Positions 20,325 to 25,680 of a DNA stretch of 64,000 nt are shown in pieces; the first letter of the stretch is position 1, and every line of letters begins with the position of its first letter. This DNA comes from Macrostomum lignano (Eukaryota), in the NCBI GenBank assembly GCA_002269645.1, contig NIVC01002993.1, positions 75,451-139,450 of the forward strand. Direction: 5' to 3'. The position numbers and the translations under genes are program-made. Below the pieces are notes generated by a model. That model saw only the letters and a program-made list of their open reading frames with translations, made no database searches and was not told where the DNA came from.

Positions 20325-21348
20325 ACTGGGTTACTGCAGCAAGACTGAGAGCACTGAACTGCTCAAGTAGCGATAACAGACGTCATTAAAACTTATTTAT
20401 AGATTTTTATTATCATAGCCTGTCTGTTGCAATTAAAGAAATCATATAGGTAATGAAAACAGATAGTGGGATGGATTCAAGGTTGACTTGATTTATGGCA
20501 CAGTTGCGTGCCTAGATTCTCGCGCCACTGCAATCTCTGGCATTCATTTTGTGGGGCTTGTGCACGAAAACTTGAAACTTGAAGTAGTAGTAACTAGTAG
20601 TAGTAGTAGTAGTAGTAGTAGTAGTAGTAGTAGTAGTAGTAGTAGTAGTAGTAGTAGTAGTAGTAGTAGTAGTAGTAGTAGTAGTAGTAGTAGTAGTAGT
20701 AGTAGTAGTAGTAGTAGTAGTAGTAGTAGTAGTAGTAGTAGTAGTAGTAGTAGTAGTAGTAGTAGTAGTAGTAGTAGTAGTAGTAGTAGTAGTAGTAGTA
20801 GTAGTAGTAGTAGTAGTAGTAGTAGTAGTAGTAGTAGTAGTAGTAGTAGTAGTAGTAGTAGTAGTAGTAGTAGTAGTAGTAGTAGTAGTAGTAGTAGTAG
20901 TAGTAGTAGTAGTAGTAGTAGTAGTAGTAGTAGTAGTAGTAGTAGTAGTAGTAGTAGTAGTAGTAGTAGTAGTAGTAGTAGTAGTAGTAGTAGTAGTAGT
21001 AGTAGTAGTAGTAGTAGTAGTAGTAGTAGTAGTAGTAGTAGTAGTAGTAGTAGTAGTAGTAGTAGTAGTAGTAGTAGTAGTAGTAGTAGTAGTAGTAGTA
21101 GTAGTAGTAGTAGTAGTAGTAGTAGTAGTAGTAGTAGTAGTAGTAGTAGTAGTAGTAGTAGTAGTAGTAGTAGTAGTAGTAGTAGTAGTAGTAGTAGTAG
21201 TAGTAGTAGTAGTAGTAGTAGTAGTAGTAGTAGTAGTAGTAGTAGTAGTAGTAGTAGTAGTAGTAGTAGTAGTAGTAGTAGTAGTAGTAGTAGTAGTAGT
21301 AGTAGTAGTAGTAGTAGTAGTAGTAGTAGTAGTAGTAGTAGTAGTAGT
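20325..21348 (+). repeat. Direct repeat A1: ~270 bp unique sequence plus (TAG)n
   Basis: actgggttactgcagc...aacttgaagtagtagtaac then (TAG)n; the unique part is identical by eye to 24533 onward. Confidence 0.92.
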
Positions 21349-21371
21349 TTGTGTTGTGTTGTGTTGTGTAG

Positions 21372-21584
21372 TGTTGTGTTCTAGTTGATTGATTAAACTC
21401 AATTCAGTTGGAGACACTTGAGTCTCGCTCAATATATTTATACTCATGTGCACGTTGAAAACAGTGTTACGCAATCGAAACAACGATACCATGATTGAAC
21501 GCACGATGCATATAAGGTAATTGAACAATTCTAGCCTCAAAGTTAGTTAGTTACAACACCTAGGCCCGATGCACAGTCACTACA
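21372..21584 (-). repeat. 3' LTR (213 bp)
   Basis: Same sequence as 24320-24532, immediately after the PPT AAGGGGGGAGAA. Confidence 0.93.
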
Positions 21585-24318: not shown

Positions 24319-24319
24319 T

Positions 24320-24532
24320 TGTTGTGTTCTAGTTGATTGATTAAACTCAATTCAGTTGGAGACACTTGAGTCTCGCTCAATATATTTATACTCATGTGCA
24401 CGTTGAAAACAGTGTTACGCAATCGAAACAACGATACCATGATTGAACGCACGATGCATATAAGGTAATTGAACAATTCTAGCCTCAAAGTTAGTTAGTT
24501 ACAACACCTAGGCCCGATGCACAGTCACTACA
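24320..24532 (-). repeat. 5' LTR (213 bp)
   Basis: Minus strand TGTAGTGACTG...AACACAACA, followed by AA and the PBS. Confidence 0.93.
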
Positions 24533-25680
24533 ACTGGGTTACTGCAGCAAGACTGAGAGCACTGAACTGCTCAAGTAGCGATAACAGACGTCATTAAAAC
24601 TTATTTATAGATTTTTATTATCATAGCCTGTCTGTTGCAATTAAAGAAATCATATAGGTAATGAAAACAGATAGTGGGATGGATTCAAGGTTGACTTGAT
24701 TTATGGCACAGTTGCGTGCCTAGATTCTCGCGCCACTGCAATCTCTGGCATTCATTTTGTGGGGCTTGTGCACGAAAACTTGAAACTTGAAGTAGTAGTA
24801 ACTAGTAGTAGTAGTAGTAGTAGTAGTAGTAGTAGTAGTAGTAGTAGTAGTAGTAGTAGTAGTAGTAGTAGTAGTAGTAGTAGTAGTAGTAGTAGTAGTA
24901 GTAGTAGTAGTAGTAGTAGTAGTAGTAGTAGTAGTAGTAGTAGTAGTAGTAGTAGTAGTAGTAGTAGTAGTAGTAGTAGTAGTAGTAGTAGTAGTAGTAG
25001 TAGTAGTAGTAGTAGTAGTAGTAGTAGTAGTAGTAGTAGTAGTAGTAGTAGTAGTAGTAGTAGTAGTAGTAGTAGTAGTAGTAGTAGTAGTAGTAGTAGT
25101 AGTAGTAGTAGTAGTAGTAGTAGTAGTAGTAGTAGTAGTAGTAGTAGTAGTAGTAGTAGTAGTAGTAGTAGTAGTAGTAGTAGTAGTAGTAGTAGTAGTA
25201 GTAGTAGTAGTAGTAGTAGTAGTAGTAGTAGTAGTAGTAGTAGTAGTAGTAGTAGTAGTAGTAGTAGTAGTAGTAGTAGTAGTAGTAGTAGTAGTAGTAG
25301 TAGTAGTAGTAGTAGTAGTAGTAGTAGTAGTAGTAGTAGTAGTAGTAGTAGTAGTAGTAGTAGTAGTAGTAGTAGTAGTAGTAGTAGTAGTAGTAGTAGT
25401 AGTAGTAGTAGTAGTAGTAGTAGTAGTAGTAGTAGTAGTAGTAGTAGTAGTAGTAGTAGTAGTAGTAGTAGTAGTAGTAGTAGTAGTAGTAGTAGTAGTA
25501 GTAGTAGTAGTAGTAGTAGTAGTAGTAGTAGTAGTAGTAGTAGTAGTAGTAGTAGTAGTAGTAGTAGTAGTAGTAGTAGTAGTAGTAGTAGTAGTAGTAG
25601 TAGTAGTAGTAGTAGTAGTAGTAGTAGTAGTAGTAGTAGTAGTAGTAGTAGTAGTAGTAGTAGTAGTAGTAGTAGTAGTA
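24533..25680 (+). repeat. Direct repeat A2: ~270 bp unique sequence plus (TAG)n
   Basis: Starts at the first base after the 5' LTR; the microsatellite is longer than in A1. Confidence 0.92.

Follow-up and report, generated by a model that had tools for sequence, protein, structure and literature searches.

A Ty3/Gypsy retrotransposon between kilobase-long host repeats in a TOP3B intron of Macrostomum lignano: a probable one-ended integration

An intron of the topoisomerase gene TOP3B of Macrostomum lignano contains a Ty3/Gypsy retrotransposon that lies between two perfect direct repeats of 1,024 bp. Judged from the order of its parts and from its two junctions, the arrangement probably arose by aberrant, one-ended integration of recently reverse-transcribed cDNA of this element into the intron. 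The best reading of the repeats, designated A1 and A2, is that they are a target duplication of excessive length and not the termini of the element. One-ended insertion by integrase did not figure among the options of the initial annotation of this DNA, but of the known mechanisms it fits best. We most likely see a single well-preserved instance of a kind of botched insertion that is already known from retroviruses; a new mode of mobility is unlikely. All positions refer to the window, the entire stretch of 64,000 nucleotides that was analysed, and the features are collected in Table 1.

Exact-match extension confirms the order that had been annotated: A1, a linker of 23 bp, LTR, internal region, LTR, A2. 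As had also been noted, A2 begins at the first base after the LTR (24533 follows 24532), with one ambiguous A that it shares with the last LTR base. The flanking sequences were originally described as direct repeats of about 1 kb composed of 270 bp and (TAG)n. They prove to be identical over 1,024 bp, A1 corresponding to the first 1,024 bp of A2, with no difference in the 270 bp outside the tract; identity at such lengths is far beyond chance. The TAG runs are pure, without impurities, and comprise 251 units in A1 (20595-21347) and 292 units in A2 (24803-25678). A1 is a shorter version of A2 that stops inside the TAG tract, at the breakpoint, and has no unique sequence downstream, as expected if the copy ends at a break. 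The position of its left edge follows solely from the end of the LTR on the opposite side. There is no short target-site duplication (TSD), again in keeping with the earlier description: the two sides of the element disagree whether 4, 5 or 6 bp are compared. Within the window, matches to the first 258 bp of A are confined to A1 and A2, and self-BLAST returned no further copy of A, of its upstream flank, of the LTR or of the internal region. Immediately before the TAG tract stands (AAACTTG)x2 (20568-20584 and 24776-24792), which we take to resemble the 3' tails of some non-LTR retroelements, so that A may include an old repeat fragment.

Table 1. Features of the insertion and its surroundings, in window coordinates.
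Feature	Position	Strand	Remarks
Host TOP3B intron	12914..26821	-	Encloses the whole structure; GT donor at 26821 and AG acceptor at 12914 preserve the frame
A1, left copy of the duplicated host target	20325..21348	+	Identical to 24533-25556 over 1,024 bp
23-bp junction filler, (TTGTG)x4 + TAG	21349..21371	+	Between A1 and the left LTR
3' LTR, 213 bp, TG...CA	21372..21584	-	U5 end is the aberrant junction
Single open frame, 912 aa	21580..24318	-	Gag, two zinc knuckles, protease, RT, RNase H, short C-terminal tail
Polypurine tract	21587..21598	-	2 nt before the 3' LTR; read from the sequence
In-frame deletion junction	21742..21747	-	388 codons gone relative to P0002, spanning the integrase zinc-binding and core domains
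PBS-like 10-mer	24308..24317	-	2 nt after the 5' LTR; overlaps the Gag start codon
5' LTR, 213 bp	24320..24532	-	U3 end is the clean CA/host junction at 24532/24533
A2, right copy, full original target (270 bp + 292 TAG units)	24533..25680	+	Runs into unique downstream intron

The element measures 3,161 bp and is read from the minus strand. Its two LTRs are identical (0/213 differences), with a terminal inverted repeat of 6/7 bases. Since neither the LTRs nor the non-tract part of A has acquired a single difference, in 213 and 270 bp respectively, insertion and duplication must both be very young. The protease, RT and RNase H of the 912-aa frame retain their catalytic motifs, and the best PDB match of the RT/RNase H polyprotein is Ty3 Gag-Pol (E 1.9e-81). 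None of the 9 Pfam matches at E<=1 in this frame is an integrase domain. The top database match, the M. lignano protein BOX15_Mlig004385g26 (P0002), is 99% identical, measures 1,300 aa and contains integrase zinc-binding and core domains in the order PR-RT-RH-IN. Besides the 388-residue gap, the window copy differs from P0002 at 6 other positions. On this comparison the loss of integrase is an internal deletion; an identical pair of residues flanks the gap at either side, which suggests that it was probably caused by a template switch of the reverse transcriptase. Loss of the integrase region does not imply integrase-free mobility, and the 99%-identical, integrase-bearing relative in the same species could supply the enzyme in trans. 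The stop codon of the polyprotein falls within the first bases of the 3' LTR (21580-21584), a trait of the family because P0002 ends with the same residues.

To which Ty3/Gypsy lineage does the element belong? The same PBS 10-mer adjoins the LTR in an alignment of the Mag family Mlig-id115 (PMC12801592), and together with the two zinc knuckles this makes membership of the Mag clade likely. Those supplements of PMC12801592 that were examined contain none of three 18-nt motifs of the element, nor the gene name, and supplement 5, which covers only six families with heat-shock elements (HSE), lists no family with a 213-bp LTR. The LTR of the window copy has no canonical heat-shock element, and its sense strand has no canonical AATAAA.

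Topoisomerase pieces lie on either side of the insertion site, as found by Pfam among 31 non-repetitive frames. Human TOP3B is the best match of the flanking exons, ahead of TOP3A, and one exon matches M. lignano BOX15_Mlig004061g1 at 100% identity. Six TOP3B exons follow each other in order through the window and are collinear across the site. Because the whole structure sits within one TOP3B intron, both unique flanks come from a single locus, and A itself is host DNA of the intron. The gene occupies 10193-36336 on the minus strand, where the six exons account for residues 1-526 of P0122; a search of window positions 1-10192 did not recover residues 527-866, which may sit beyond the window. 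The element (21372-24532) has the same orientation as TOP3B, and a host transcript would thus carry it in sense. The same intron holds an array of 193 copies of a 22-bp unit (4.2 kb, 15687-19931), about 400 bp to the left of A1, and the window is rich in further intronic mini- and microsatellites. Upstream of TOP3B, exons with MATH and BACK domains (40376-54162, minus strand) likely belong to a gene of the SPOP family. An Rfam scan and ARAGORN gave 0 hits each over the window.

The two junctions of the element are of different kinds. At the U3 junction the LTR terminates in CA and host DNA follows at once, with no filler and an ambiguity of 1 nt. The U5 end is likewise intact and abuts sequence in phase with the tract; both LTR ends stop exactly at TG/CA. 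At this end, however, the filler intervenes, whose repeated unit is the first 9 nt of the adjoining LTR end. Neither this 9-mer nor (TTGTG)2 occurs in the other 60,816 bases of the window. Starting at the U5 3' end and moving outward, one can divide the filler into 7 segments, all taken from the TAG tract or the LTR tip, with 1-4 nt of homology to prime each of them. Controls parsed equally well in 2 of 5,000 shuffled linkers and in none of 16,736 sampled 23-mers of the window, figures to be read in the light that the test was devised after the sequence had been seen and that a periodic linker is easy to explain. A stricter control asked which window sequences could take the place of the LTR tip as template: 1,352 of 127,850 16-mers (1.1%) would do so, the opposite LTR end would not. 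If the template is lengthened by the 2-nt U5 extension, the parse falls from 7 to 6 segments, a gain that hinges on one base and was given no weight.

Raw retroviral cDNA carries 2-nt extensions at its ends, as given by the spacing of PBS and PPT (PMC5041404). By the same spacing, the raw cDNA of the present family would have 2-nt extensions as well. Both predicted extensions are missing from the inserted copy, which points to processing by integrase. The second join lies 1,024 bp further right than the first, as compared to 4-6 bp in a normal insertion, and since it lies further right, A1/A2 has the polarity of a TSD.

How could such a structure form? We propose that the particle contained integrase from an intact member of the family, which would have trimmed both cDNA ends to CA-3'. 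Only the U3 end would then have been joined, to the base that is now 24533; the clean junction at this position is what can be observed of that step. Synthesis by a host polymerase would have started from the free U5 3' end with the neighbouring (TAG)n tract as template; this end would then have slipped repeatedly onto the tip of its own LTR before returning to the tract, leaving the filler that is now seen. Copying, with recombination or fill-in, would finally have closed the branch about 1 kb past the first join, inside the tract. Resolution on the duplicating side would yield A1 and A2 as a target-site duplication of 1,024 bp with normal polarity. The scheme follows a published model (PMC5041404): one end stays clean, the other 3' end can acquire several segments of host or viral origin, and duplications run to hundreds or thousands of bp. 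Against it stand the single locus and the indirect nature of the integrase-processing argument, for which the extensions are inferred from spacing. Moreover, in that account the host-joined end is often truncated, whereas it is intact here, and the model was built on retroviruses under mutation or drug.

Could the cDNA have entered without integrase? The initial annotation had considered capture at a break in the (TAG)n tract. In a fuller form, cDNA would be captured at a break or stalled fork, an aborted homologous repair would duplicate about 1 kb, and end-joining would seal both ends. The window copy encodes no integrase, the filler resembles a templated insertion of end-joining, and the U3 junction shows 1 nt of homology, all of which would suit this course of events. 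Yet both ends are exactly TG/CA and have lost their 2-nt extensions, an outcome that end-joining would achieve only by luck, and integrase was obtainable in trans. We therefore consider this explanation unlikely. What survives of the annotated proposal is the duplication of about 1 kb during repair, ending in (TAG)n; independence from integrase is unneeded and probably wrong, because the TG/CA ends are exact without the 2-nt extensions and an integrase-bearing relative exists.

Slightly more improbable than capture is a mis-assembly, in which (TAG)n and the element would have served to merge sequences from three sources: one empty and one filled haplotype or homeolog, and a further copy next to a microsatellite. 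Long perfect repeats border both joins, and M. lignano is described as a hidden allotetraploid with a redundant assembly (PMC12801592). The filler, however, is present in neither parent sequence, which means that the aberrant junction must be real somewhere; in addition, the tracts of A1 and A2 are unequal in length, the order of the TOP3B exons is unbroken across the site, and the structure spans only 5.4 kb.

We give slightly less credence still to an uncoupled two-ended integration, in which integrase would have joined both ends, but to opposite strands at points some 1 kb from each other, with slippage during fill-in as the source of the filler. This is the reading proposed for a 273-bp duplication of XMRV (PMC2857682), and it would agree with a U5 end that is intact and next to tract-phase sequence. 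A strand-transfer junction, on the other hand, should have no filler, and copies of the LTR tip outside the LTR need an extra step.

A sequence of two events is a little more doubtful again: a normal insertion with a short TSD, then a non-homologous exchange in which the (TAG)n tract of an unoccupied allele or homeolog became attached to the left LTR. Homeologous empty sites are plausible in the M. lignano genome (PMC12801592), and a pseudo-TSD created by later rearrangement has been discussed for HERV-K (PMC5488345). Such an exchange would demand a break that hits the LTR tip exactly and removes the entire left TSD copy, of which the filler retains no trace.

Least probable of all, and by our estimate very improbable, are the two remaining proposals of the initial annotation, a composite element whose true termini are the A repeats and a Campbell-type integration of a circle of A plus the element. 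Perfect direct repeats and an element without integrase would be compatible with either, but A is found only here in 64 kb. As intronic TOP3B sequence with an LTR-defined left edge, A lends the composite no support in the window; no convincing TSD or terminal inverted repeat accompanies the composite, only chance-level A/T-rich matches of 4-5 bp at shifted boundaries, and the ends of A1 and A2 differ. The circle of A, filler and element is what recombination between A1 and A2 would release, and so describes a product of the structure and not its origin. A chimera of non-LTR (TPRT) type was ruled out by reasoning: an RNA template cannot yield two complete LTRs.

Might the integrase-deleted form nevertheless be more than an accident? 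Gag and Pol share one frame, and an integrase-less polyprotein would therefore fill particles. One may picture an amplified subfamily that starves particles of integrase and routinely inserts by one end or by none, with microsatellite priming and kilobase duplications. We regard this as improbable. It has no positive support: no similar in-frame integrase deletion with the C-terminal tail motif was present among the 120 other proteins compared, in a screen of 121 proteins that is weak, as no more than 24 of 87 long proteins show the tail motif and the 14-member P0002 cluster would conceal near-identical forms. In the same set, 101 proteins had the RNase H end motif, 14 of which end within 250 aa past it. 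If such a subfamily did exist, a natural retroelement would be systematically making tandem duplications in a microsatellite-rich genome, and the significance would be much greater if integrase-deleted copies did so routinely genome-wide.

One-ended integration, the reading we prefer, carries consequences of its own. The locus would provide a clean natural case from outside the retroviruses in which host repair completed a half-finished integration and left its path legible in a filler of 23 bp. Annotation that demands a short TSD misses such insertions. Recombination between the two 1-kb copies could delete the element tracelessly, so that an empty allele need not be ancestral.

Repair by polymerase theta leaves short, iterated filler that is copied from sequence adjacent to the junction and primed on 1-4 nt of homology. 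The filler described here resembles these templated insertions and differs in that the free end is retroelement cDNA. No kilobase duplication with LTR-derived filler in a Gypsy retrotransposon was evident in the literature surveyed, a weak negative since few subscription journals were covered, and the literature search found no study of Gypsy elements equivalent to the retroviral work on one-ended integration. With the Ty3/Gypsy (Ty3/Mdg4) elements of M. lignano (PMC12801592), the window copy shares TG...CA LTRs, PBS, PPT and the order Gag-PR-RT-RH(-IN); unlike them, it lacks the integrase region (by in-frame loss), a short TSD and a canonical heat-shock element.

LTR elements between long identical host repeats have been described for HERV-K (HML-2) (PMC5488345) and XMRV (PMC2857682). 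Eight cases of long TSDs of 13-450 bp are tabulated for HML-2, one with 2 extra nt at the junction (PMC5488345), and XMRV shows its 273-bp duplication at 1 of 15 sites (PMC2857682). The 1,024 bp observed here exceed all cases listed for both, the HML-2 survey extending only up to 500 bp (PMC5488345). Unlike HERV-K and XMRV, the present insertion has a readable filler of 23 bp, and the element is a retrotransposon, not a retrovirus. The closest parallels are aberrant integrations of ASLV end mutants and of HIV-1 with weak or partly inhibited integrase (PMC5041404). There, as here, one junction is a normal CA junction, the other end is extended by segments derived from the host and from the element itself, and a host duplication of hundreds to thousands of bp replaces the short TSD. 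In contrast to these cases, the M. lignano insertion is a natural germline event of a flatworm Ty3/Gypsy element, in which the host-joined end is untruncated and the break lies in a microsatellite.
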